DNA of 64,000 nt, taken from sequence record OM386661.1, one strand, 5' to 3'. The DNA comes from Escherichia phage vB_EcoM_ESCO45. The stretch's first letter is position 1. Every line of letters begins with the position of its first letter. Shown here one piece after another: positions 11,590 to 59,027 of this stretch. Below the pieces are notes generated by a model that saw only the letters and a program-made list of their open reading frames with translations, searched no databases and was not told where the DNA came from. The position numbers were made by a program, and so were the translations under genes.

Positions 11590-11784
11590 ATGCCTACAAT
11601 CCTAGCAATTCTCCTAAAAAATCTAGGTAGCTTCTTCTGGAAGCTCATTTTATCCCTTCTAAGTGAATACATGATTGAGAAAGTGTTCTTTAAGCTTGCA
11701 AGATATCTTGCGAGTAAAACAGACACACCTATTGATGATGAGTTCGTAGACAACTTAGAAAAAGCTTTTAAGGGGGAGGAATAA
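11590..11784 (+). CDS. small hydrophobic protein (possible holin-like)
   Basis: 64 aa, hydrophobic N-terminal half, acidic C-terminus; preceded by sigma70-like promoter at 11516-11544 and RBS GAGGTGA. Confidence 0.35.
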   Translation: MPTILAILLKNLGSFFWKLILSLLSEYMIEKVFFKLARYLASKTDTPIDDEFVDNLEKAFKGEE

Positions 11785-12150
11785 ATGAAGTGGCTAGAGG
11801 AAGCTTTTAAAAACAATATTGGTGCAATTGTAGTTGGTATTTTTAGTGTTATCGGAATGTATACCACCATGCAAGTGTCAAGTGGTAAACAAGAGGTGTC
11901 TGTCAAAACAAAGTTACAACAGTTGGATAATTACACAAGTAGTAACTATTCAGCTATTCGTGATTTACAGTCTGACATGAGACTGCTTCAGTTAGGGATG
12001 GAGAACCAGAAAGTTCAGTTAGAGAATGTTAAGGGTGAAAACGCAAAACTTACCAAAACTCTTGATAAATTCTCTGACAGTGTGAATAATCTGGCTCAAT
12101 CAGTATCAGCCCTCCAAGCTATTACTGAGAAGAATACAGAAGAACACTGA
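11785..12150 (+). CDS. membrane-anchored coiled-coil protein (possible lysis/holin-related)
   Basis: 121 aa, one predicted TM segment (IGAIVVGIFSVIGMYTTMQV) then heptad-like region; strong terminator directly downstream. Confidence 0.3.
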   Translation: MKWLEEAFKNNIGAIVVGIFSVIGMYTTMQVSSGKQEVSVKTKLQQLDNYTSSNYSAIRDLQSDMRLLQLGMENQKVQLENVKGENAKLTKTLDKFSDSVNNLAQSVSALQAITEKNTEEH

Positions 12151-12162
12151 AAATAAAATTTT

Positions 12163-12192
12163 AAGGCTCCTTTTTACGGGAGCCTTTTTTGT
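12163..12192. terminator. bidirectional rho-independent terminator between convergent genes
   Basis: GGCTCC-loop-GGAGCC hairpin followed by TTTTTT on + strand and an A/T-rich run on - strand. Confidence 0.65.
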
Positions 12193-12193
12193 T

Positions 12194-13093
12194 TTACTTA
12201 CCTACTGACAAAGGTGCTTCAATCTTTCCTGCATGTTGGTAGTTGTTAATGCCACCAATAAAATCACTTGCAGTAAGGTGTTTTAGGTCACTTAGTGTGT
12301 TAAGCTGTACACCAATCTCAAAAGTAGGTGCATGAAACTCTTCATTGTTCATCAGTTCATAAACCTGTTTCATATGGTTCTGATAAATCTGAGTATCTCC
12401 GAAGACGCCTATCAAATATCGTGGAGTGTATCCAGTCATCTTACAAAGAACTTCCAGAATAAAACCATAAGATGCAATGTTAAATGGAAGTCCTAAAAAG
12501 GTGTCTACAGAACGTTGATACCATTGTAAGTCAACTTCACCTTCGTTAGTGATATAAATCTGAAACAGAACATGACAAGGTGCTAAAGCCATCGAGTTGG
12601 CTGCAATATCTGCTGCATTCCAAGCATTAACAAGCATGTAACGGTCTGTGATATCACCTTTCATCTTCGTTACTAAGGTCTCTAGTTGGTCTACAACACA
12701 ACCATTATGACCTTCGAAGTTTCTCCACTGAACCCCGTAGATTCTACCACCTGCATCTTCTAGCCAGTCTTGTTCAGAAGAATAGTTAGAGCTTAACCAG
12801 CGTTTAAAATCATCTGACCAGATAGTCCAGCGTTCCCCATCATTTTCACCCCAAGTACGATAACGGAGTTCACCAAGCTTATTCTCACCGTTCAGGAACC
12901 ATAAAGCTTCTCCAATAACTTGCCGTGTAAACACCTGTTTAGATGTTAAGAGTGGGAAACCAGTACGCATATCAAAACGAAATTGTGGTGGAGCAAATGC
13001 AGAGATAACGTCTCCAGTTCGTGTAGTACGCAGTTCGCCAACGGATAAAACATGGTTCAGGATATTTTTGTAACTCAAATCAGCTTGTGACAT
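12194..13093 (-). CDS. td: thymidylate synthase (ThyA family)
   Basis: 299 aa; YGVQWR, DQL, ALAPCH (catalytic Cys), WYQRSVDTFLGLPFNIASY, GDTQIYQNH motifs in ThyA order; Asn in FNIASY indicates dUMP substrate. Confidence 0.8.
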   Translation of the reverse strand: MSQADLSYKNILNHVLSVGELRTTRTGDVISAFAPPQFRFDMRTGFPLLTSKQVFTRQVIGEALWFLNGENKLGELRYRTWGENDGERWTIWSDDFKRWLSSNYSSEQDWLEDAGGRIYGVQWRNFEGHNGCVVDQLETLVTKMKGDITDRYMLVNAWNAADIAANSMALAPCHVLFQIYITNEGEVDLQWYQRSVDTFLGLPFNIASYGFILEVLCKMTGYTPRYLIGVFGDTQIYQNHMKQVYELMNNEEFHAPTFEIGVQLNTLSDLKHLTASDFIGGINNYQHAGKIEAPLSVGK

Positions 13094-13094
13094 A

Positions 13095-13640
13095 TCAAAA
13101 GTGTCCTTTTACTTGTGGAACATAAATCTCAAAGGTTGCTTTACCATCATCTGAGGGTCTTGACTGCACCTTTGCAAATACACGGCTATCATACAGTTTA
13201 TCGAAGAAGTTTTCAAAAGGTAAATGCACAGTGGCCTCTTCAGTAACTTTATGGAAAACTGTATGGAAAACTACATCAGCATACGGCAAAGCATCGACAA
13301 GAACACCTGCACCACCAATTACAAAGACGTCTTCATCAATAGAGCTATCAAGATACTTCAAAAATGCTCCAAAGGACTCTTTACTAGCCTTAGCATACAT
13401 TACATCGTCTTTGTCAAAGTCTATCCCAAAATATGGCACAGAGTTTGTTAAGATAAGATTTTCACGTTCTGGTAAAGGCTTACTACCTAGAGTCTTAAAA
13501 GTCTCATTACCCATAACTACCAAGTTGTCTTTAGTGAGTCTCTTAAACTCTTGCATATCTTGCTTATGTCGAGGCCACGGCATACCAGTTGGAGTACCAA
13601 ACTCCCCATTTTCACCACTTGCAAAGATTAATTTAATCAT
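13095..13640 (-). CDS. frd: dihydrofolate reductase
   Basis: 181 aa; N-terminal IKLIFA...GMPW and VVMGNETFKTLG pattern typical of DHFR; adjacent to td as in many phages. Confidence 0.7.
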   Translation of the reverse strand: MIKLIFASGENGEFGTPTGMPWPRHKQDMQEFKRLTKDNLVVMGNETFKTLGSKPLPERENLILTNSVPYFGIDFDKDDVMYAKASKESFGAFLKYLDSSIDEDVFVIGGAGVLVDALPYADVVFHTVFHKVTEEATVHLPFENFFDKLYDSRVFAKVQSRPSDDGKATFEIYVPQVKGHF

Positions 13641-13897
13641 TTTGTAAACCCTTTCTTAATAAACCAGTTGATAACATTCTTCACAGCTTTATTGCTATGG
13701 TAGATTAAGTGTGGTGTAGGTTGGTATAAACCATAAGCCCAGAAAGCAATGATTTCATTACATCCTGTACACCTTGTACTCTCTTCAGCAATATGACCGT
13801 TGACTATTTCACTTACCTCACCTTGTAAGTCTGTACACCCACAATGCGGACATCGGATAGGTGTTCCGTCAGACTCATAGCAGTGTTCAATTTTCAT
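13637..13897 (-). CDS. small zinc-ribbon protein
   Basis: 86 aa with CPHCGC ... CTGCNE (paired CxxC). Confidence 0.4.
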   Translation of the reverse strand: MKIEHCYESDGTPIRCPHCGCTDLQGEVSEIVNGHIAEESTRCTGCNEIIAFWAYGLYQPTPHLIYHSNKAVKNVINWFIKKGFTK

Positions 13898-14137
13898 CTA
13901 TTTAACCTCAAAAACTGGCTCAAGAACCAATATAAAGTCTACACAGTCATCTTCTTCATCCAGAATACCATCAAAGTTCTTAGGAACGAAGTCGAAGAGG
14001 CTCATAACAAAACCAGCTTCGTCGCCACATGTAACTATTTTAAAAGATGCTTCATTCTCATACTGTGAAGCCATAAGCTTTTTAAGCATCTCTTTAAGGA
14101 AATCTGCATGAGCATCTTGTAAGTAGACATCAATCAT
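13898..14137 (-). CDS. hypothetical acidic protein
   Basis: 79 aa ORF in co-directional array. Confidence 0.35.
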   Translation of the reverse strand: MIDVYLQDAHADFLKEMLKKLMASQYENEASFKIVTCGDEAGFVMSLFDFVPKNFDGILDEEDDCVDFILVLEPVFEVK

Positions 14138-14150
14138 AGTTAATCACCTA

Positions 14151-14510
14151 TTATGGGAACAGGCACTTAATGTCATCGTTTTTGAAAACAAAACTTGTGT
14201 AGTTATGACCGTCAACATCCAGCCAAACAGCCTGAACATCTACACCATCAAGATTCTGGTAAAGCTCTTTGATGAAGTGGTCTTTCACAATCTGACTGCT
14301 AGTGGTTTCCAGCTTAATGTTCGAGATTGCTGAACCTACAGCCATATAACCCATGACACGTTTCTTCTCAGTATGCTTAATCTTACCATCTTTGTAAGCC
14401 ATAATAAGATTGGAGAGAATCTTTACACCATAATACTTTTCAAGGTGAGTAGGCACACCATAAAAGCCTAATGCGAAGTTTTCAGAGTGGATAATGTTTT
14501 CACGTTTCAT
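14151..14510 (-). CDS. hypothetical protein
   Basis: 119 aa ORF. Confidence 0.4.
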   Translation of the reverse strand: MKRENIIHSENFALGFYGVPTHLEKYYGVKILSNLIMAYKDGKIKHTEKKRVMGYMAVGSAISNIKLETTSSQIVKDHFIKELYQNLDGVDVQAVWLDVDGHNYTSFVFKNDDIKCLFP

Positions 14511-14511
14511 A

Positions 14512-14841
14512 TTAGTCTGCCAACCTTAAATTGAAATTAACACCAAATTTTTCACACACTCCCAACATATACTCAAGGGAAACATTCCCAGTGAGGTGGA
14601 TTATGTTGGATACACGAGCCTGAGAGATACCACAAATTTTAGCAACTTGCTCTTGAGAAAGACCTCTGGATTTAATCTCTCTCTTAAAACGATGTGCAAC
14701 GAAATCTCTCATTTCGTCTACATCCATTGGACAAATATAACTCTCCATTTCAGCCTCTCTATCAGCCTCCCAATCATCTTGTGGGGCATAAGGGTCAAAA
14801 ACCTCATTCATCTTTCTTCTTCCGTTTGCGTGAAGTGTCAA
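14512..14841 (-). CDS. HTH (XRE-like) transcriptional regulator
   Basis: 109 aa; C-terminal LSQEQVAKICGISQARVSNI helix-turn-helix signature. Confidence 0.55.
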   Translation of the reverse strand: MTLHANGRRKMNEVFDPYAPQDDWEADREAEMESYICPMDVDEMRDFVAHRFKREIKSRGLSQEQVAKICGISQARVSNIIHLTGNVSLEYMLGVCEKFGVNFNLRLAD

Positions 14842-15016
14842 TTAATGAATCTATGTTTGTAGCCCTAACCTTTTCACGTTCATCGTTAAGATAATCATCA
14901 AGAGCCTTTTCAATCTGTGAATCATCTTGACAGATAACTGTAAAGACTGTAAAGCCGTCTGTATCATCAATTATCTTACCATAACCGCTTCTGGGATGTA
15001 ACTTTTTAAGAGCCAT
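14804..15016 (-). CDS. hypothetical protein
   Basis: 70 aa ORF between secreted-protein gene and HTH gene, overlaps HTH start. Confidence 0.3.
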   Translation of the reverse strand: MALKKLHPRSGYGKIIDDTDGFTVFTVICQDDSQIEKALDDYLNDEREKVRATNIDSLIDTSRKRKKKDE

Positions 15017-15017
15017 A

Positions 15018-15401
15018 TCAAATACCTGTGCAGCTTCTGTTTTCTAAGAAATACTCAACACCATACATAGCTTTTTGCATCAAATCTTCTTTAAACTGGA
15101 TACGGTGGTTGAGCATAGCCTGTACATCAATATCATCATGGTGTTTCTCTTTAATGTTTGCAGATTGCAGGAAATACTCTGCAAGAACACGATACTGGTA
15201 GTCAGTTACCTTATCAGTCATCTCTGTCAAAGACTCTTCAGAGATTGGTTTAAGCAGCTCACCTTTATATAGAGCAACACCTTTTACAATCTGGCAAGTG
15301 TCTTCTGGAACACCTGATAAGTCCACATTGGGAAGTTCTGTTGCATTGACTGGTAAATTCATTGCCATAACCGTTGCAGCAGCTAATAAAATCTTTTTCA
15401 T
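15018..15401 (-). CDS. secreted (periplasmic) protein, unknown function
   Basis: 127 aa; N-terminal Sec signal peptide MKKILLAAATVMAMNLPVNA followed by soluble domain. Confidence 0.5.
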   Translation of the reverse strand: MKKILLAAATVMAMNLPVNATELPNVDLSGVPEDTCQIVKGVALYKGELLKPISEESLTEMTDKVTDYQYRVLAEYFLQSANIKEKHHDDIDVQAMLNHRIQFKEDLMQKAMYGVEYFLENRSCTGI

Positions 15402-15901
15402 AATGACCTCAAAGTTATATTAAATTTTGTATTACGTTGAGTATAAAAATAAGCTATAACACCTGACTTGTCAACAGATTTTATAGCTTATTTGGCAGAT
15501 TTTTTATAAGGCTACTGCCATCCTTCCATACCAAACCTCACCTGACCTCGCCTAACCCTACCTTACCCCACCATACAGCACCTTATTAAAACACCCTGTT
15601 TAAAGACCTTTTAAAAAGGTAAGTCTCATTTTAATGTAGCTGAGACTAACTACCCATACCTCACCCTACCAGACCCTACCAGACCAGACCTTACCCTACC
15701 AGACCCTACCGAACATCACTTAAAAACCCTCTTAGAAGACTCTTAAGTGATGTAATCGAATTTTAATGTAGCTCCGATTAACTACCCATACCTCACCTCA
15801 CCCAACCATACCATGCCTTGCCAGACCGCACCTTACCTCATTAAAAGACCCTCTTAAAAGACCTTTTAAAAAGGAGCCTCCGAAGAGGCTACCTAGTCAA
15901 C
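15402..15901 (-). repeat. structured intergenic region 1: G-depleted C/A-rich tracts alternating with conserved hairpin modules
   Basis: ACCCTACCAGACCCTACC at 15663-15680 and 15693-15710; hairpin AGTCTCA-N12-TGAGACT at 15622-15647; variant hairpin with compensatory changes at 15754-15779; 10-bp inverted repeat CATCACTTAA/TTAAGTGATG at 15714-15752. Confidence 0.7.
15862..15892 (-). terminator. rho-independent terminator (minus strand) after gene 15902-16342
   Basis: AGCCTC-cgaa-GAGGCT hairpin with T5 run on minus strand. Confidence 0.55.
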
Positions 15902-16342
15902 TTAGAAAGGTTTTCTACGTTGCTTGTTAATGTTAGCTTTCATAGCAGCTAAATGGTTTTGCTGTTCAATCAGTCGTGAACGTTCTTGATGACTAAGCGC
16001 CATAGTGTTCACATTCTCAATTGCTTGAGTGGCTTGCTTTAAAGCTCGACCAATCTTACCAGACATTTTGCGTTTTGCAATAGTTGCTTGATGCTTAGGT
16101 TCAACCACACGATAACCAACACCCATTGAAGCAACCAGATAAATCTTCTCTTCTTTAAGAAGCTTTTCAATAAACTTCTCAAGTCGGTTTAGACGTGTAA
16201 GTGCATAAGCCTTCATTTCATCTTCGTACTTAACAATGTCACCTTGATAAGTTGGCTTCACAATACCTAAGAAGGTGTCCATCTCGGAATGTGATACAGT
16301 GTCGCCGTAACTAAACTTTGCTGCTAATGCTTTTGTATTCAT
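15902..16342 (-). CDS. hypothetical protein (cassette gene 2)
   Basis: 146 aa ORF; followed by hairpin-T5 terminator at 15862-15892. Confidence 0.45.
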   Translation of the reverse strand: MNTKALAAKFSYGDTVSHSEMDTFLGIVKPTYQGDIVKYEDEMKAYALTRLNRLEKFIEKLLKEEKIYLVASMGVGYRVVEPKHQATIAKRKMSGKIGRALKQATQAIENVNTMALSHQERSRLIEQQNHLAAMKANINKQRRKPF

Positions 16343-16344
16343 AA

Positions 16345-17351
<1,007 letters not shown>

Positions 17352-18452
17352 TTATTCATAATCTCGTATAACGAGACCAACAGGGAACTGTAAAGAACCC
17401 TTACGAGTCATCTTCTGGAACTGAACCGTTAAAGGCTTCCCGATAAACTCTTCAGGATGCTCAGCAAGATACTGTTTCTTCTCATGAGTAGTCTTCCATG
17501 AGACATCTACAAAGACGTTAGGAAGAGTCTCTACAACGAACTTACCGTGGCCACGTTTATCGGTCTTGACACCAGTCACTTTAAACTCTTCAGTGTGCAT
17601 CTTCTTATGCTTAATCAAGAAGTATGAACGGTGACCACACTCATAGAAGGAGTCTTCAGAGATTGAACGGTACATTGCACCTTCAAACTTAGCTTCAACC
17701 CACTTATCATGGGCTTCATCAAGCTCTTCCCAAGAATTTACACGGATAGTCTGTACAGGAACAACTCTACAGGTATCTCCAAGTTCAACAATGGGTGAGT
17801 TATCAATAACTTCACGACGCTCAGGCCAAGATTTTGAATTGTCACAGATATCATACCAGTAGAATTTAAGAAGGTGACGGTCTGGATTATCAGCATTCTT
17901 AATCATAGACACAATATCTTCTAAGTCCCAACCATGAGCATAAATCTCTCCATCAAAGTCTTCAACTTGTGGATGTAATTTAAGCAACAAAAGCAAATCT
18001 GGGATTAGTTCTGCTGGAACGTTGTAAACAGTATTCTCACGAGAATAAGCTGTGAAACTGACTGAATCAGCATCTCTTGAAATTCTACAACGTACACCAT
18101 CCAGTTTTGGTTGAGCATCAGCAGGGAACTTCAGATACTTTGCATGGCTAACCTTTGCAGCATCATGAGCAAGCTGTACACCTACCTTCTCAGTATTCTG
18201 TGCAGACTCTTTTGTGTAAGCATAACCTTTACGGTCAACTTGCTTTTTATACTTAGCAGCAACTTCAAAGAGAGCTTGCTGTTCAGCATTACGCTCATTC
18301 TTTTTACCGATATTTTTAGGTTCTGCTGTATACTCTTCAAACATCATCTTGCCATTTTCTTTACCGTAGGTTGTAATAACTTTGTCACCTACAGCAGCAC
18401 ATGACCAGACGTTGAAAGAACCATCTTTATTTTGTTTGTATAGTGTTGTCAT
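17352..18452 (-). CDS. ATP-dependent DNA ligase
   Basis: 366 aa; adenylation motif I PKLDGVRCRI (KxDG) and downstream nucleotidyltransferase-like motifs. Confidence 0.8.
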   Translation of the reverse strand: MTTLYKQNKDGSFNVWSCAAVGDKVITTYGKENGKMMFEEYTAEPKNIGKKNERNAEQQALFEVAAKYKKQVDRKGYAYTKESAQNTEKVGVQLAHDAAKVSHAKYLKFPADAQPKLDGVRCRISRDADSVSFTAYSRENTVYNVPAELIPDLLLLLKLHPQVEDFDGEIYAHGWDLEDIVSMIKNADNPDRHLLKFYWYDICDNSKSWPERREVIDNSPIVELGDTCRVVPVQTIRVNSWEELDEAHDKWVEAKFEGAMYRSISEDSFYECGHRSYFLIKHKKMHTEEFKVTGVKTDKRGHGKFVVETLPNVFVDVSWKTTHEKKQYLAEHPEEFIGKPLTVQFQKMTRKGSLQFPVGLVIRDYE

Positions 18453-18664: not shown

Positions 18665-18898
18665 TTAAAAGGATAAGTCAATATTAATACGTTCGCCCTT
18701 AAGGACTCCTGTACGGTCTCTTGCAATCTTGCCGTCAACAATAAGGATATGTGCAGACCTTAAAGCGTCACCATTAAAAGTTTTTACGAACTTACTAGGC
18801 ATCACTACAATGGGCATCTCCTGAATCATCTCTTGAGTATAGCAATTGTCGTGAAGTTGCTGAATAACGTCTGCAAGTGTCATTTTTGATGTCTCCAA
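18665..18898 (-). CDS. small protein, paralog A (shared GxKIAxDxTGxLKGER motif)
   Basis: 77 aa; ...ILIVDGKIARDRTGVLKGERINIDL...; paralogous to 19086-19304 product. Confidence 0.4.
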   Translation of the reverse strand: METSKMTLADVIQQLHDNCYTQEMIQEMPIVVMPSKFVKTFNGDALRSAHILIVDGKIARDRTGVLKGERINIDLSF

Positions 18899-23221: not shown

Positions 23222-24022
23222 ATGAATATCAATGTAGAAAAGATGCTTGAAGAAAAGGGTATTGACGAAGCGTTCTTAATCAATGCCGTAGAAAGTATGG
23301 CTATGATTCTTCGTGGGAACAACTACACAGAACAGTTTATGCCTGCAAGCTACAATCTGCCTAAAGACAAGTCTGATAACGATGCTTTTGCAGAACAGGT
23401 TAACATGATGTTGACAGACACTACACTTGCTCTGGCATCTATTGCGGTTGGTGTTGATGCACTTGCTGAGTTCATTTTTTATGAAATGCAAAAGAATGAC
23501 TATATCAGGATGTCAGACGAAGATAAGGAACTGCTGCTGACTAAGGACACTGATTTCATTATTGATACGCTTATCTCATCAACGAGTGCTGTTATGGCTG
23601 TTCTTGAGAAGCGTATGGAAGAAAAGCTGTCACGATATGAAAAGCTTGATTGGGGTGTAGAAGAACTAAACCCACGAATCAAAGAGATTATCCAGCAAAC
23701 CAAAGAGTCTTTGGAAGAAGCTGTGGAGAATGACTTTGTAGCTGATATAGAGCCGCTTCAGGTGAAAGTTGCACTGATGATTCCAGCTATCTCTACAATG
23801 ATGAATATCGTTGCACTAATCCAACTTTCACAGGTGATGGGTGTGAGTATGGAGTTCATTGAGGAGATGACTGGTGGTGTTAGTATGCAAGCAATCAATG
23901 ATGTTTTGGTGAACATTGGTGCTTCAATCATTGAAGAGAAACTACGCATTAACTTCGGTGATGATTTTGTGAAGCAACTCTCAGCTATGGCTGAAAAAGA
24001 GTCTGCTGAGCAACTGCACTAA
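23222..24022 (+). CDS. hypothetical protein
   Basis: 266 aa acidic ORF; terminator-like hairpin at 24041-24066. Confidence 0.4.
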   Translation: MNINVEKMLEEKGIDEAFLINAVESMAMILRGNNYTEQFMPASYNLPKDKSDNDAFAEQVNMMLTDTTLALASIAVGVDALAEFIFYEMQKNDYIRMSDEDKELLLTKDTDFIIDTLISSTSAVMAVLEKRMEEKLSRYEKLDWGVEELNPRIKEIIQQTKESLEEAVENDFVADIEPLQVKVALMIPAISTMMNIVALIQLSQVMGVSMEFIEEMTGGVSMQAINDVLVNIGASIIEEKLRINFGDDFVKQLSAMAEKESAEQLH

Positions 24023-25036: not shown

Positions 25037-27014
25037 AGGTCGTAAATTGAAAGAGGCTGGTCAGTTTATTGGTCATTGTGCATGTCCACGTTGTGGTTCA
25101 TCAGATGCTGGTTCAATCTATCATCATGATGATGATTCTTATTCGATGACTTGCTTTAGTTGTAACAAAGGTTTCCCAGAGTGGGATTTTGATAAAGGAC
25201 AAATCGTGAGCGCTTATTCTACTGGTTCAGACAATAAAAACCGTACTTTCCGTGGGATGGATTTAGACGATGTGAAAGAAAACCTTGAAGCAATGGACTT
25301 AAAGGACAGGAAGATTCCTGCAAAAGTCCTTGAACGCTTAGGTATCAAGGTTGACATTGACAGTGACGGTGAAATTGATGCGCACTTCTATCCGACTTAC
25401 AAACGTAATGAAGATGGCAAGCTAGAGCATGTTGGCTACCGTGTTCGTCACCGTTACCCAGAAGACCATCCAAAAGAGCACCTACGTGGTAAGTTAAAAG
25501 ACTTTTCAGGTGGTGTTGGAGACATTAAAGGTGAACTGGCAATGTTCGGTTCATGGATTGCTCCAGAAGGCGGTAACCGTCTATTCATCTGGGAAGGTGA
25601 GATGGAATGTGCGACAGCAATCTATATGACTTCTTTGGCGATTAAAGATAAGTCTCGTCGTAAGAATTACTGTCACGTATCTGTTCCATCAGGTGCAAAC
25701 ATTAAGTCTATCAAAGACAACTACCAGTACATCACATCATTTGATGAGATTTACTTGTGCTTTGATAACGATGAAGCAGGTGCTAAAGCCACTAAAGAGG
25801 CTGCTGGTATCCTACCCATTGAGAAGGTTCGTTTATTCCAGTATCCAGAAGGTGTAAAAGACCTTAACGAGTGGTGGACAAAGTTCTATAAAGAGAAAGA
25901 TACAGTTCTGGAAGGATTTAAGCAGCGTATCTACAATGCACCTCGTTACTGCCCTGCTGGTATCAAGAACTTCGCAGATGGTTTTGAGGCAATGAAGAAT
26001 CGTGGTCAGATTCCATTGATTCCTTTCCCAGAATCTTTCGGAGATTTGAACAGGCTGACTTATGGCGGTTATGGTTTAGGTGAGATTACAACTCTGGCAG
26101 CACCATCTTCAGTGGGTAAATCTGCATACACTCGTGAAATGATTTATACTGCTTGGAAAGATACCGATTACAACATTGGTGTAATTCCTGTAGAAGATAC
26201 CTATGAAGAGTTGATGGAGATGCTCTGTGCAATCCACCTGAGCAAGCAGATTTCTGAGATTCCTTATGACGAACGTGATTGGGATGAATTGAAGGAGGCA
26301 CACGCAGAACTGTCTAAAGGTCGTCGTATCCACATCGTTGACCATCAAGGGGCAATTGACCAAGATAACTTGCTGGAATTTGTTGACTATCTTGTTAACA
26401 GTTTAGACTGTAAGATTATTATTCTTGACCCTATTACGTTGGCTCTGTCACGTTCAGATACGGATGAAGAGGAAGTTTTGTCTGAGCTATTGCGTCGTTG
26501 CAAACGCTACCAGTATGCACAGGTAAACGTCTGTCACGTTCGTAAGAGTGCAGGTGGTCAGAAGGCTAACTCTGAAGGTGGAGATATCTCTGAAGAGGAT
26601 ATTAAAGGCTCTGGTGCGTATTTCCAGATTTCTATGAACAACATTCTGTTAATGCGTAACAAGGTTGACCCAGACCCTGTTAAGAAAAACTTGACAAAAA
26701 TCAAGTTAACTAAATGTCGTCGTCACGGTAAGTCAACGGGTATTGCTGGTCATACTTGGTACAATCCAGATACAGGGCGTCTTATCAAAGCATCTGGTTG
26801 CGGAGTTGACATTGACGGTGCAGCAGAAAATATTCGCCAACAGTTTGGCATTGGTGAAGCTGAAGACCATTACGATGACTCTTTGCCACATTATGAGGAT
26901 GAAGTGTTTGACCGTGATACTGGTGAAGTCTATACTGAAGAGCAGCGTCAAAGCTCAACGATTCCACCTGTATTAAGTGAGGATGCAGATGACTGCCCGT
27001 TCGAAACTGAGTGA
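25029..27014 (+). CDS. bifunctional DNA primase-helicase (T7 gp4-like)
   Basis: N-terminal Zn finger CACPRCG...CFSCNKG, TOPRIM-like FDNDEAGAKA, helicase Walker A APSSVGKSAYT and Walker B IIILDP; ATG 25029 preferred over GTG 25023. Confidence 0.8.
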   Translation: MSKGRKLKEAGQFIGHCACPRCGSSDAGSIYHHDDDSYSMTCFSCNKGFPEWDFDKGQIVSAYSTGSDNKNRTFRGMDLDDVKENLEAMDLKDRKIPAKVLERLGIKVDIDSDGEIDAHFYPTYKRNEDGKLEHVGYRVRHRYPEDHPKEHLRGKLKDFSGGVGDIKGELAMFGSWIAPEGGNRLFIWEGEMECATAIYMTSLAIKDKSRRKNYCHVSVPSGANIKSIKDNYQYITSFDEIYLCFDNDEAGAKATKEAAGILPIEKVRLFQYPEGVKDLNEWWTKFYKEKDTVLEGFKQRIYNAPRYCPAGIKNFADGFEAMKNRGQIPLIPFPESFGDLNRLTYGGYGLGEITTLAAPSSVGKSAYTREMIYTAWKDTDYNIGVIPVEDTYEELMEMLCAIHLSKQISEIPYDERDWDELKEAHAELSKGRRIHIVDHQGAIDQDNLLEFVDYLVNSLDCKIIILDPITLALSRSDTDEEEVLSELLRRCKRYQYAQVNVCHVRKSAGGQKANSEGGDISEEDIKGSGAYFQISMNNILLMRNKVDPDPVKKNLTKIKLTKCRRHGKSTGIAGHTWYNPDTGRLIKASGCGVDIDGAAENIRQQFGIGEAEDHYDDSLPHYEDEVFDRDTGEVYTEEQRQSSTIPPVLSEDADDCPFETE

Positions 27015-27084
27015 TAGTTATAAAAGAGAGGGGTTCACACCCTTCTTTGAAGAAAAAAGTTTAAATAAATTTCAGGAAGAGTGT

Positions 27085-27113
27085 TTGACAAAGCTTGATA
27101 GGTTCTATAGAAT
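27085..27113 (+). promoter_or_regulatory. sigma70-like promoter
   Basis: TTGACA-N17-TAGAAT. Confidence 0.55.
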
Positions 27114-27266
27114 GCTCCTCATGAAATGCGATGGGGAAGTTGAGGTAAAAGAAGATTTCCACCAAAGCATGATTACAGTCATTATTTCACTGCATCAGCA
27201 TAACATTAGCTGGCTGTTTATAATGAAAGAAAACGTGTTTGAATATCAAGTATATCGGAGAATATC

Positions 27267-27416
27267 ATGAAACACTCTAAAGCATTTGAAAAAGTTTTTG
27301 GGGATTCCTTAAAAGCCACTGCTGGAAAACCAGCAAAATACTATGAAGAAAAACGTGTAAGAACTGGAAAAACTGCACGTAAAGCAGCTTCTAAAGATAA
27401 GCACAACTTCCAGTAA
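27267..27416 (+). CDS. possible small basic protein (49 aa)
   Basis: Short ORF with RBS GGAG 8 nt upstream, between two consensus-like promoters; below ORF-track size cutoff. Confidence 0.2.
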   Translation: MKHSKAFEKVFGDSLKATAGKPAKYYEEKRVRTGKTARKAASKDKHNFQ

Positions 27417-43565: not shown

Positions 43566-44114
43566 ATGAAGAAATTGATTCTAGGTTTGTGCTTAATGTT
43601 TATAGCACACTTATCTTATGCAGTTGACTGCCCAGAGCTATCAATTAGTCAAAAAGTAAACATGTTAAAAGCTTACCAGTATGGTGAGAATAACATGGGT
43701 AAAGGTTGGGGTATCACTCTAGCTGCTATAGCCTTACAAGAGTCAGAGTTAGGTCTGAAGGTAGAGAATAAAAAGACACACGATTATGGTATTTTCCAGA
43801 ATCACTTGAAGACTGTTGTAAAGCGTAACAAAATTAGTCCTAATGTGGCTAAAAAGAAACTTTTAAAAGACTTTAACTATGCTGCGAAGGAAACTCACAA
43901 AGAGCTTGAGTTTTGGACAAAGGTACATGGTCAGCCAAAGTCAAAGAAGACTTTACAAAAAGTTTTAGCATCTTATAATGCTGGTTATTCGTACAGAATC
44001 CCTAAAGCTAAGAAGTATTCTCAAGATGTCTATAACAATATGAGAGTTATTGCTCAATGTGAATTTGCAACAAACATTTCTAAGGTAAATCATGAAAAAA
44101 TTAAGAAAGTCTGA
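43566..44114 (+). CDS. secreted lytic transglycosylase (SLT domain) with signal peptide
   Basis: 182 aa; signal peptide MKKLILGLCLMFIAHLSYA; SLT motifs ALQESELG (catalytic Glu), YGIFQ, SYNAGYSY. Confidence 0.55.
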   Translation: MKKLILGLCLMFIAHLSYAVDCPELSISQKVNMLKAYQYGENNMGKGWGITLAAIALQESELGLKVENKKTHDYGIFQNHLKTVVKRNKISPNVAKKKLLKDFNYAAKETHKELEFWTKVHGQPKSKKTLQKVLASYNAGYSYRIPKAKKYSQDVYNNMRVIAQCEFATNISKVNHEKIKKV

Positions 44115-47067: not shown

Positions 47068-47415
47068 ATGACATTTAAAGAGTTCTGTCAAGCTACTTTC
47101 ATAATTGTTTTCTTAGTTGGGGCAGGTGTCTGGGGAGGATACTCTTACAGAGACTATCAAGTTGCTGAAGCTGAGCTAAACAATGAAAAGCTCATAAGTG
47201 TTGCTAAAGATGCTTATCAGGAAGGGTTAGCCACACTGAGCACCAATTACAAAAATGATTTGAAAGATGTGCTTGCTAAGAATAAGCATACAAAAGAGGT
47301 ACTAACATATGAAAAAACTAAGCCAGAGTTTTATAATGTTTGTGTTACTGATAACTATGTCAGGGTGTTCAACGAACAAAGTGAGCAGTACATTCAAAAA
47401 CTCCCAAGTAAGTGA
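47068..47415 (+). CDS. i-spanin (inner-membrane spanin subunit)
   Basis: 115 aa type-II membrane topology: N-terminal TM (FIIVFLVGAGVWGGY) then coiled-coil periplasmic domain; o-spanin gene embedded in +1 frame at 3' end. Confidence 0.45.
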   Translation: MTFKEFCQATFIIVFLVGAGVWGGYSYRDYQVAEAELNNEKLISVAKDAYQEGLATLSTNYKNDLKDVLAKNKHTKEVLTYEKTKPEFYNVCVTDNYVRVFNEQSEQYIQKLPSK

Positions 47416-47578
47416 GAGTGATAAGTACACTCAAGAAGAATCACGGTATATCATCAAAGGTAACACAGGCAGTGATGTAGCAGCAGCACTTGAGTTCTAT
47501 CGTGACGGCTTTTACCAGTGCACAATCAAAGCTAACAACCTTATTGACATGATTTTATTAGGGAATAAGCAGCAATGA
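47309..47578 (+). CDS. o-spanin (outer-membrane lipoprotein spanin subunit)
   Basis: 89 aa; lipoprotein signal with lipobox ITMSGC; starts inside i-spanin gene in a different frame; RBS AAAGAGGT. Confidence 0.45.
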   Translation: MKKLSQSFIMFVLLITMSGCSTNKVSSTFKNSQVSESDKYTQEESRYIIKGNTGSDVAAALEFYRDGFYQCTIKANNLIDMILLGNKQQ

Positions 47579-58261: not shown

Positions 58262-58446
58262 TCAAGGTCAACAAGCCTATGTAGGACTTTACCTCTAGGT
58301 GTTACACCTTTTAAATCTGCATCATAGCAATGGTAAAAGTCACATTCAGCGTGTCTACCATAGCATTTTCTGATATTCTGGCTTCTGCGATACTGTTCTA
58401 ACAAGGACAGTTTGTAGTAATCTTCAACTGTAGTTAATTTTTTCAT
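58228..58446 (-). CDS. hypothetical protein
   Basis: 72 aa Cys/His-containing ORF. Confidence 0.3.
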   Translation of the reverse strand: MKKLTTVEDYYKLSLLEQYRRSQNIRKCYGRHAECDFYHCYDADLKGVTPRGKVLHRLVDLEWNKRLRGFGK

Positions 58447-59027
58447 TCTTTCACCATAGCATTTCTGAACTGGCGTTGTGTTTCTCTTGTAATTTCGTTT
58501 GGGGTAAACCCTGCTTTTAGCATATCTCTGAAAAGAACTTCTAAGTGGTTCCTCTCAATGATGTAAATGGCATTCTGAATAGCTGTTTTACGCTCCTTCA
58601 GGTCACTACTAAGCTCTTCGCACTTGCTTGTAAGTTCTGTGTCAACTTTCTTATAGACTGGCATAACATGTGCGTAACAACCTTTATTGGTCTCTATGAA
58701 GAATTTAAAAGATTCCTCAGAGTCCTTTAAAGCAATCCCTATAAAGTTTTTGTAAGCACCTGTGAAAGATAAGGACTCAATCTCAGCGGTTGAGTATACA
58801 ATCCCTGCACACAGTCTTGCAGGAGAACTGAATGTGTGGTTTGGTGTTGTGTCAAAGTCTAAGTTCTTCAGTGGTCGAAAATAAACTGTTCCATTGTGTG
58901 AGATGTGTGTTACAACAGCCTCAACACTCTTTGAAGGATTCTGTTTAACATACAAAATAATTTTATCGTGTTCTTTCACTTTAGCCATATCTATTCTCCA
59001 GAAACTAAAAAGGGAACTATCTCTCAA
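58443..59027 (-). CDS. hypothetical protein
   Basis: 194 aa ORF. Confidence 0.4.
   Translation of the reverse strand: MRDSSLFSFWRIDMAKVKEHDKIILYVKQNPSKSVEAVVTHISHNGTVYFRPLKNLDFDTTPNHTFSSPARLCAGIVYSTAEIESLSFTGAYKNFIGIALKDSEESFKFFIETNKGCYAHVMPVYKKVDTELTSKCEELSSDLKERKTAIQNAIYIIERNHLEVLFRDMLKAGFTPNEITRETQRQFRNAMVKE

Follow-up and report, generated by a model that had tools for sequence, protein, structure and literature searches.

Spackle (gp61.3) of phage T4 is an early, periplasmic protein whose mature form, a helical bundle of 75 amino acids (aa) with a Cys29-Cys81 disulfide, is an inhibitor of gp5, the tail lysozyme of superinfecting phage (PMC7677548). The RI protein of T4 is also small, periplasmic and mostly helical, has two cysteines, and carries a signal-anchor-release (SAR) domain instead of a canonical A-x-A signal peptide; its phage has rII genes. 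Receptor blockers of the T5 Llp and Cor type are lipoproteins, and the XRE/Cro-C1 regulators include HigA2, HipB, PezA, and the controllers of restriction-modification systems. The locus described here belongs to the Felix O1-like phages, virulent myoviruses with hosts in Escherichia, Salmonella, and Shigella that are widely used for Salmonella typing, in biocontrol, and in therapy cocktails. The temporal regulation of Felix O1 is stated to be unknown (PMC3185647, Whichard et al.). A search of the Felixounavirus literature on a regulator, a signal peptide, or superinfection retrieved nothing on these genes, and no paper was found on Felix O1-like phages in mixed infection.

The window, the whole 64-kb stretch of DNA that was analyzed, is a Felixounavirus (Felix O1-like) genome. 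Its nucleotide identity to many Felixounavirus genomes is 94 to 98%, as measured on a 2.3-kb stretch around the exported-protein and regulator genes, where about 100 such genomes matched. The minus strand carries every gene from 12194 to 16947. In annotated relatives, the order runs from DNA ligase through two optional genes and a repeat region to a 127-aa hypothetical protein, a 70-aa hypothetical protein, a “transcriptional regulator,” hypothetical proteins of 119, 171, and 86 aa, dihydrofolate reductase, and thymidylate synthase. The same gene order is found in Felixounavirus, Mooglevirus, Suspvirus, and one metagenomic relative. The 127-aa gene (15018..15401), the 70-aa gene (orf70; 14804..15016), and the gene of a helix-turn-helix (HTH) protein (14512..14811), all on the minus strand, are the counterparts of Felix O1 ORF87, ORF86, and ORF85, respectively, and are the first three members of a conserved nine-gene Ounavirinae operon.

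The genes of this operon share one strand and either overlap or are spaced by 1 to 13 nt. The junction of genes 1 and 2 reads TGA-T-ATG, and at the junction of genes 2 and 3 the stop of the 70-aa gene overlaps the start of the HTH gene by 8 nt (ATGAATGA). Next in line is a 119-aa gene to which no function is assigned (orf119; 14151..14510, minus strand; Felix O1 ORF84, phrog_4116). The operon also includes the dihydrofolate reductase gene (13095..13640, minus strand) and ends with the thymidylate synthase gene (12194..13093, minus strand). It is closed by a bidirectional intrinsic-terminator-like hairpin (12163..12186), which is t79/t80 in Felix O1 (PMC3185647 Table 2). Another intrinsic-terminator-like hairpin (15875..15890, minus strand) closes the upstream orf200-orf146 unit and sets it apart from the repeat region and the operon. 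The base composition of the locus is unremarkable. The sequence-only reading had placed the exported protein next to the regulator and treated the two as a pair or module. This view lacks support because another gene, that of the 70-aa protein, separates them and they are merely collinear members of a longer operon. Both occur in the same approximately 260 phage records, but these genomes are collinear throughout, so that shared occurrence is uninformative about a functional link. The HTH protein is tied to the exported protein by operon membership only.

A sigma70-type promoter-like site precedes the operon on the minus strand (15446..15474). It consists of TTGACA (15474-15469), a 17-nt spacer, and TATTTT (15451-15446), with 10 of 12 matches; Felix O1, phiSUSP1, and the metagenomic relative L006 have the same arrangement ahead of their orthologous genes. 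The −35 hexamer is surrounded by an inverted repeat (15447..15493) with 19-nt arms and a 9-nt loop, which as minus-strand RNA gives a hairpin followed by a U-run (−17.8 kcal/mol, z = −4.6). L006 keeps the arms, its changes being G-U compatible, and changes in the arms that are compensatory or G-U compatible suggest an RNA hairpin. An Rfam scan of 13000-17500 returned a single match, at chance level. The inverted repeats enclose the −35 element in the Felix type and the −10 element in the Moogle type, and their sequences are unrelated (Felix AAATAAGCTATAA... versus Moogle CCTGACGGG..., CTTAGTGGG...), whereas the recognition helix of the HTH protein, ISQ[AS]RVSNI, is conserved across genera. Since the repeats differ completely between genera while the helix that would read them does not, they are unlikely to be operators of the operon's own HTH protein, and this candidate role is not favored.

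The 127-aa gene starts with ATG, stops at 15018-15020, and has a Shine-Dalgarno sequence, GAGG (15410-15407), 6 nt ahead of the start codon. Its product matches phrog_4332 over the full length (E 2e-65). The gene is present in about 260 phage records, and those examined call it no more than “hypothetical protein” or “Phage protein” and do not mention export. The transcript of Felix O1 ORF87 was detected by reverse transcription-PCR (RT-PCR) (PMC3185647 Table 3, Whichard et al.). It peaked at 25 min and was placed in the “middle” class, not the immediate-early one, together with those of ORFs 80, 83, 84, and 88-90 (PMC3185647). ORF85 and ORF86 are absent from the RT-PCR table, and no product of ORF85, ORF86, or ORF87 was found among the Felix O1 virion proteins (PMC3185647).

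The first 20 codons (15342..15401, minus strand; MKKILLAAATVMAMNLPVNA) encode a predicted signal peptide composed of MKK (n-region), ILLAAATVMAM (h-region), and NLPVNA/TE (c-region), with a predicted signal peptidase I (SPase I) cut after VNA, that is, after residue 20; the mature chain would then begin with TELPNV. The prediction comes from an n/h/c plus −3/−1 rule of our own, which looks for a positive n-region, an uncharged hydrophobic h-region of about 8 to 15 residues, and small residues at −3 and −1. This crude rule, which is not SignalP, selected 1% of shuffled proteins and, of the 125 ATG ORFs with 60 or more aa in the 64-kb window, 3. The other two ORFs selected encode an o-spanin lipoprotein and a 182-aa exported, SLT-like protein (43566-44114). 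All 28 distinct homologues were selected as well, though the sequence of the signal peptide diverges (VNA/TE, AAA/MK, AYA/DM, and ASA/NI around the cut), and among 32 homologues MKK and the alanine at −1 are invariant. In the AlphaFold model, residues 1 to 20 are unstructured (pLDDT <50). As the sequence-only reading had proposed, the 127-aa protein is very probably exported to the periplasm by way of a Sec/SPase I signal peptide.

No twin-arginine motif is present. A lipoprotein of the T5 Llp or Cor receptor-blocker type was considered and rejected, as the lipobox [LVI][ASTVI][GAS]C does not occur and the Felix-type signal peptide contains no cysteine. Mooglevirus alleles have a cysteine (C7) inside the h-region, which is preceded by L and is not lipobox-like. 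One Shigella phage protein (P0007) is a natural chimera in which a Felix-type signal peptide and a Moogle-type mature domain are joined exactly at the junction.

The mature domain (15021..15341, minus strand; 107 aa, pI 4.7) is predicted to form a three-helix bundle with helices at residues 31-45, 55-86, and 93-121. The AlphaFold2 model, computed from a 32-sequence alignment, has a mean pLDDT of 84.8 and a pTM of 0.75; residues 21-127 are folded confidently, with a pLDDT of >90 over most of 31-127. Invariant positions include C36, C124, the loop GELxKP (47-52), D63, D67, Y70, Y76, D90, G114, F118, and R122, and P0034, the most distant relative, still has both C36 and C124. An invariant cysteine pair in an exported protein suggests a periplasmic disulfide, and the mature protein probably contains a C36-C124 bond. 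Structure prediction had been proposed as a way to learn more about this protein. It delivered a confident three-helix bundle but no fold relative, and such a bundle is a generic fold that gives little guide to function.

Searches with the exported protein found no match in PADLOC, Pfam, or NCBIfam, and phmmer and profile searches of the PDB sequences returned nothing below an E value of 0.1. An exhaustive phmmer search of 1.84 billion representatives gave six matches. Five are members of the family, one of them a 57-aa fragment, and the sixth is a 2097-aa protein matched in six short stretches (E 1.7e-5). The best Foldseek match in the PDB had an E value of 0.41, with generic helical bundles among the matches listed (best 50), and in BFVD the family's own Sf13 member was all that Foldseek retrieved. 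The exported protein is without a sequence, profile, or fold relative outside the Ounavirinae. The earlier statement that no domain could be assigned by eye holds for this protein in Pfam, NCBIfam, PDB, and Foldseek searches as well.

The make-up of the exported protein is nonetheless close to that of T4 Spackle. The two share a small precursor, a cleavable N-terminal export signal and an acidic compact helical bundle (both predicted here), a cysteine pair near both ends of the mature chain, expression before the late genes, and a gene located among genes of DNA metabolism. They differ in the length of the mature chain, which is 107 aa here and 75 aa in Spackle. An hhalign comparison of the 32-sequence profile with T4 Spackle gave a probability of 13%, with only the signal peptides aligned; Spackle is also not among the matches listed (best 50) in the Foldseek search of the PDB. 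With T4 RI the hhalign probability was 0.2%, and membership in either family was rejected on these profile comparisons. A Spackle-type target is not evident in the phage, since a Pfam search (E <= 0.01) of five tail and baseplate proteins (tape measure, Dit-like, plug, hub, and spike) found no lysozyme, SLT, peptidase, or peptidoglycan-hydrolase domain. For the exported protein, the actual mechanism of Spackle lacks support. The hub protein has zero Pfam matches of any kind and could contain a cryptic domain.

Within the genus, the genes of the locus are conserved. A set of 27 Felixounavirus genomes gave dN/dS values of 0.027 (orf119), 0.036 (orf70), 0.059 (HTH gene), and 0.075 (exported protein; mature part alone, 0.05), and the exported protein and the HTH protein are products of real genes under purifying selection. 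In the exported protein, the replacements seen within the genus are concentrated in the signal peptide, in residues 42-46, where helix 1 ends, and in residues 87-97, the loop between helices 2 and 3. Between genera, the identity of the exported protein is only 30 to 35%, versus 52 to 63% for orf70, 60 to 77% for the HTH protein, and 60 to 71% for orf119; the same comparisons give 54 to 72% for dihydrofolate reductase and 89 to 96% for the ligase. Against the whole genome of Suspvirus EP1, the exported protein is, at 35%, the second most diverged of 95 shared ORFs (median, 74%). Together with other small genes without an assigned function, it ranks in the most variable decile of the genome, and its alleles fall into at least five classes. 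This divergence is not mirrored in the entry apparatus of the phage, as the tape measure and baseplate proteins compared are 80 to 91% identical between the same two genomes; the long tail fiber is at 51% and orf64 and orf121 are at 89 to 93%.

In phiSUSP1, the ligase, orf200, orf146, and the promoter are 96 to 99% identical to those of the window, and identity falls to 32% from the start codon of the exported protein onward. Judged from such alignments, alleles of the exported protein move by recombination, also between genera with different hosts. Constraint within a lineage combined with replacement between lineages is the pattern to be expected of an accessory protein facing a variable partner, and the fast divergence of the exported protein would fit a gene that faces hosts or competitors.

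The reading that accounts best for these observations, with a probability of roughly 0.35, is that the exported protein binds, in the periplasm, a variable target of the envelope or of superinfection and that the HTH protein is independent of it, the two being linked by the operon only. The operon would be read on the minus strand from the host-type, sigma70-like promoter (15474-15446) to the terminator (12186-12163), and its first gene would yield a 127-aa precursor that is exported by Sec and cut by signal peptidase I after VNA(20). What cleavage would set free in the periplasm of the infected cell is an acidic three-helix bundle of 12 kDa, probably held together by the C36-C124 disulfide, and this bundle may bind or inhibit, stoichiometrically, a variable target on the envelope side. 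Candidates for this target are a step on which superinfecting phages rely and an envelope factor of the host or of a prophage. Such a scheme would follow the logic of T4 Spackle without homology to it, and for a small, exported, non-enzymatic bundle a periplasmic binder that blocks an envelope step seems the most economical reading, with about one chance in three. The likeness to superinfection-exclusion or envelope-modulation modules that was suggested earlier thus survives in part: a phage-encoded, very probably exported, fast-diverging protein of Spackle-like make-up fits it, whereas a module of regulator and effector does not. A bolder version, which we regard as doubtful, would have the 127-aa protein found a periplasmic effector family restricted to the Ounavirinae and unrelated to Spackle, RI, or Llp. 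Its members would block competitors or disarm envelope defence, the allele classes would reflect an arms race, and orf70 and the HTH protein would together regulate the temporal programme of Felix O1.

The variability of the exported protein could also be explained if it served the producing phage against its host, by neutralizing a periplasmic or membrane factor of the host or of a prophage, with the HTH protein in the role of an Aca-type repressor. Factors envisaged are a protease, a nuclease, an envelope-stress sensor, or a membrane-acting abortive-infection or exclusion protein. The layout is like that of an anti-defence operon, as a fast-evolving small gene, among the most variable decile of the genome, heads an operon with a consensus −35 promoter and is followed by a far more conserved HTH gene, and recombination appears to swap its alleles between genera that infect different hosts. 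We nevertheless consider this unlikely. The protein has no match in PADLOC, Pfam, or NCBIfam, and the anti-defence proteins known to us act in the cytoplasm. The promoter repeats differ between genera while the recognition helix is conserved, which argues against Aca-like autorepression through these repeats.

A role in the timing of lysis appears more unlikely still. The exported protein would here be an RI-like periplasmic antiholin or lysis-inhibition sensor that binds the periplasmic domain of the holin and delays lysis, for instance on superinfection. Like T4 RI it is small, has two cysteines, and is predicted to be mostly helical and periplasmic, and homologues of rIIA and rIIB exist in Felix O1-like phages. 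The holin of Felix O1 is not defined, gp79 being one candidate (PMC3185647). The gp79 orthologue in the window, orf121 (11785-12150), shows a single hydrophobic segment at its N-terminal end, a topology within reach of a periplasmic partner; in Pfam it gave a weak coiled-coil-type match in its C-terminal part only. Against this stand the hhalign probability with RI and the conserved A-x-A site in place of a SAR domain. Co-evolution with a candidate holin is not seen, as orf121 and orf64 are 81 to 93% identical, with orf121 at 82 to 93%, where the exported protein is 30 to 35% identical, and no literature report of lysis inhibition in the Felix O1-like group was found.

Returning to the reading of an exported binder and an independent regulator, the second and third genes of the operon have features of their own. 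The 70-aa gene matches phrog_4473 over its full length (E 2e-45), a family without functional annotation, as is phrog_4332. Its product is predicted to consist of a small beta-beta-beta-alpha domain (pLDDT of ∼80) and a conserved, basic tail (..NIDSLIDTSRKRKKKDE) predicted to be disordered; the whole AlphaFold model is of moderate confidence (pLDDT 68), and Foldseek found no fold match for it. Neither orf70, upstream of the HTH gene, nor orf119, downstream, matched a toxin family in Pfam, NCBIfam, or PADLOC.

The longest ORF of the HTH gene begins at TTG 14841, but ATG 14811 is most likely the true start, giving a protein of 99 aa. The sequence MNEVFDPYAP, which begins with that methionine, is conserved across genera (four lineages); the 10 codons that a TTG start would add are not. 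The gene upstream of the HTH gene ends, in the most distant relative, before the conserved methionine. The HTH_3 (Cro/C1-type) DNA-binding domain (14533..14685, minus strand) covers residues 53-103 of the 109-aa reading, which are 43-93 of the 99-aa protein. It matches Pfam HTH_3 (PF01381) at 37.1 bits against a cut-off of 23 (E 3.1e-9), which bears out the earlier assignment to the XRE-like regulators, and the protein matches phrog_1373, “transcriptional regulator,” over its full length (E 3.8e-26). The C-terminal 50 to 55 residues are thus those of XRE/Cro-C1 regulators, above the gathering score. To these the phage protein adds a conserved acidic N-terminal extension of 42 aa (14686..14811, minus strand; MNEVFDPYAPQDDWEADREAEMESY...), which hardly varies across three genera and to which no family is assigned. 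Among solved sequences, antitoxins and controllers of the XRE type come closest, with HigA2 (E 1e-3) followed by 2a6c, HipB, PezA, and C.BclI; a designed repeat protein that was the top solved match is an artefact of repetitive sequence. The score against Pfam HTH_37 was 27.2, with a cut-off of 27, the NCBIfam antitoxin models scored far below their cut-offs, and no recognizable toxin or restriction-modification partner is encoded at the locus.

The 8-nt ATGAATGA overlap implies that translation of orf70 and the HTH gene is coupled, and the coupling, together with the complementary charges of the two proteins, makes a complex between them plausible. In the preferred reading, the 99-aa HTH protein would be an independent DNA-binding regulator of phage (or host) transcription that is translationally coupled to the 70-aa gene. 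It is quite improbable that orf70 and the HTH protein are instead a two-protein unit of their own, toxin-antitoxin-like or of the partner-switch kind and functionally unrelated to the exported protein: the gene order is that of HigB/HigA, the overlap implies coupling, the conserved basic disordered tail of orf70 stands opposite the conserved acidic extension of the HTH protein, which scores at the HTH_37 cut-off and, besides the designed protein, has antitoxin HigA2 as its best solved match, but orf70 has neither a toxin-family nor a fold match and a model pLDDT of 68, and the likeness of XRE HTH domains to antitoxins is generic.

These genes were already known, in that they are clustered in PHROG and have long been deposited as hypothetical proteins, and the 127-aa gene is an ordinary accessory gene that had not previously been characterized. 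As it stands, the finding adds little beyond better annotation. New are the probable export, the predicted disulfide-stapled three-helix bundle with its cysteine pair, the hypervariability, the corrected start of the HTH gene, the intervening third gene, and the structure of the operon. Should the exported protein exclude other phages or act on the envelope, this would bear on the design of phage cocktails, and the protein would be a second, non-homologous periplasmic effector of the Spackle-like kind. If the HTH protein controls the switch from early to middle expression, this would fill a stated gap in the biology of Felix O1.

Two labels in the GenBank record of phage JLBYU32, “heme-degrading enzyme-like” for orf70 and “nucleoside triphosphate hydrolase” for orf119, were rejected, as neither has support in Pfam or NCBIfam. 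The sole signal related to these labels is a DUF406 match with an E value of 0.017, below its cut-off. For orf121, a role as i-spanin was likewise ruled out, as the true overlapping spanin pair sits elsewhere in the window, at 47068-47578.

The gene for the exported protein is flanked by sharp recombination breakpoints, located at 15399-15440 in the window, at 2440-2500 in L004 (the locus of a relative) and in the protein P0007 (the homologue from a Shigella phage). Phage phiSUSP1 is nearly identical to the window upstream through the promoter, whereas its exported protein is only 32% identical. Shigella phage vB_SflM_004 carries a chimera, in which a Felix-type signal peptide is joined to a Moogle-type mature domain. 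The first 60 nucleotides of the gene (15342-15401) show a synonymous divergence of 0.015, compared with 0.23 in the remainder of the gene. Amino acid replacements are frequent in this same segment, with a dN/dS of approximately 2 over few sites. This pattern may reflect either a constraint acting on the 5' end of the mRNA or recent sweeps.

Four other open reading frames (ORFs) have diverged from Suspvirus phage EP1 as much as the exported protein, with identities in the range of 30 to 43%. These are located at 58443-59027 and 18665-18898 on the minus strand and at 26977-27270 and 23222-24022 on the plus strand, and together they form the hypervariable accessory set of the ESCO45 genome. Within the operon headed by the exported-protein gene, the 79-amino-acid ORF at 13898-14137 (minus strand) is an in-frame shortened form, with approximately 276 nucleotides missing, of a 171-amino-acid gene that is present at full length in Felix O1 (ORF83), bumzen, and Mushroom.

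The structured repeat region (15531-15874) contains three copies of a unit of approximately 89 nucleotides, spaced by 133 and 122 nucleotides. Every unit contains a small palindrome and a tract that is GGT rich on the transcribed strand, which by eye appears to be phased about every six bases. The region is an optional insert, because it accompanies orf146 and orf200 in vB_EcoM_ESCO45, bumzen, and phiSUSP1, persists only as a remnant in Felix O1, and is absent in Mooglevirus.

Both sigma70-like promoters near the locus are enclosed by inverted repeats able to form hairpins. At the first (15447-15493; promoter at 15474), the −35 element lies in the loop of a hairpin of −17.8 kcal/mol (z = −4.6) that is followed by a U-run. 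At the second (17300-17344), downstream of the ligase gene, the arms TGGTGAGTA and TACTCACCA enclose the −10 element of TTGACA-16-TATACT at 17344. It is this −10-enclosing type that is found immediately upstream of the exported-protein gene in Mooglevirus, where comparison of Mordin with ESh22 shows covariation of the hairpin arms. These hairpins may represent the overlap of a terminator with a promoter, or a site of RNA processing.

A Sec signal peptide (MKKLILGLCLMFIAHLSYA|VD) is also predicted for another protein, encoded at 43566-44114 (plus strand). This 182-amino-acid protein belongs to phrog_600 (unknown function), is 80% identical to its EP1 counterpart, and matches the Pfam SLT (lytic transglycosylase) family below threshold (E value of 0.001; 19.1 bits against a cutoff of 21.3). 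An overlapping spanin pair at 47068-47578 (plus strand) comprises a 115-amino-acid, i-spanin-like protein with an N-terminal membrane segment and, embedded out of frame, an 89-amino-acid lipoprotein with an MS-G-C lipobox-like motif and a weak match to phrog_456 (“Rz-like spanin”). Two small membrane proteins, orf64 and orf121, follow the tail fiber genes (11590-12150, plus strand). The former has a hydrophobic N terminus and belongs to phrog_402; the latter has a single, N-terminal hydrophobic segment and a C-terminal part with only a weak coiled-coil-type Pfam match. Some records label orf121 “holin”; according to PMC3185647, no holin has yet been defined for Felix O1.

Felixounavirus-like DNA, including the exported-protein locus (95% protein identity), also occurs in GU169904 (Staphylococcus phage SA1) and in two Campylobacter phage records, most likely reflecting contamination or chimeric assembly rather than true host range.
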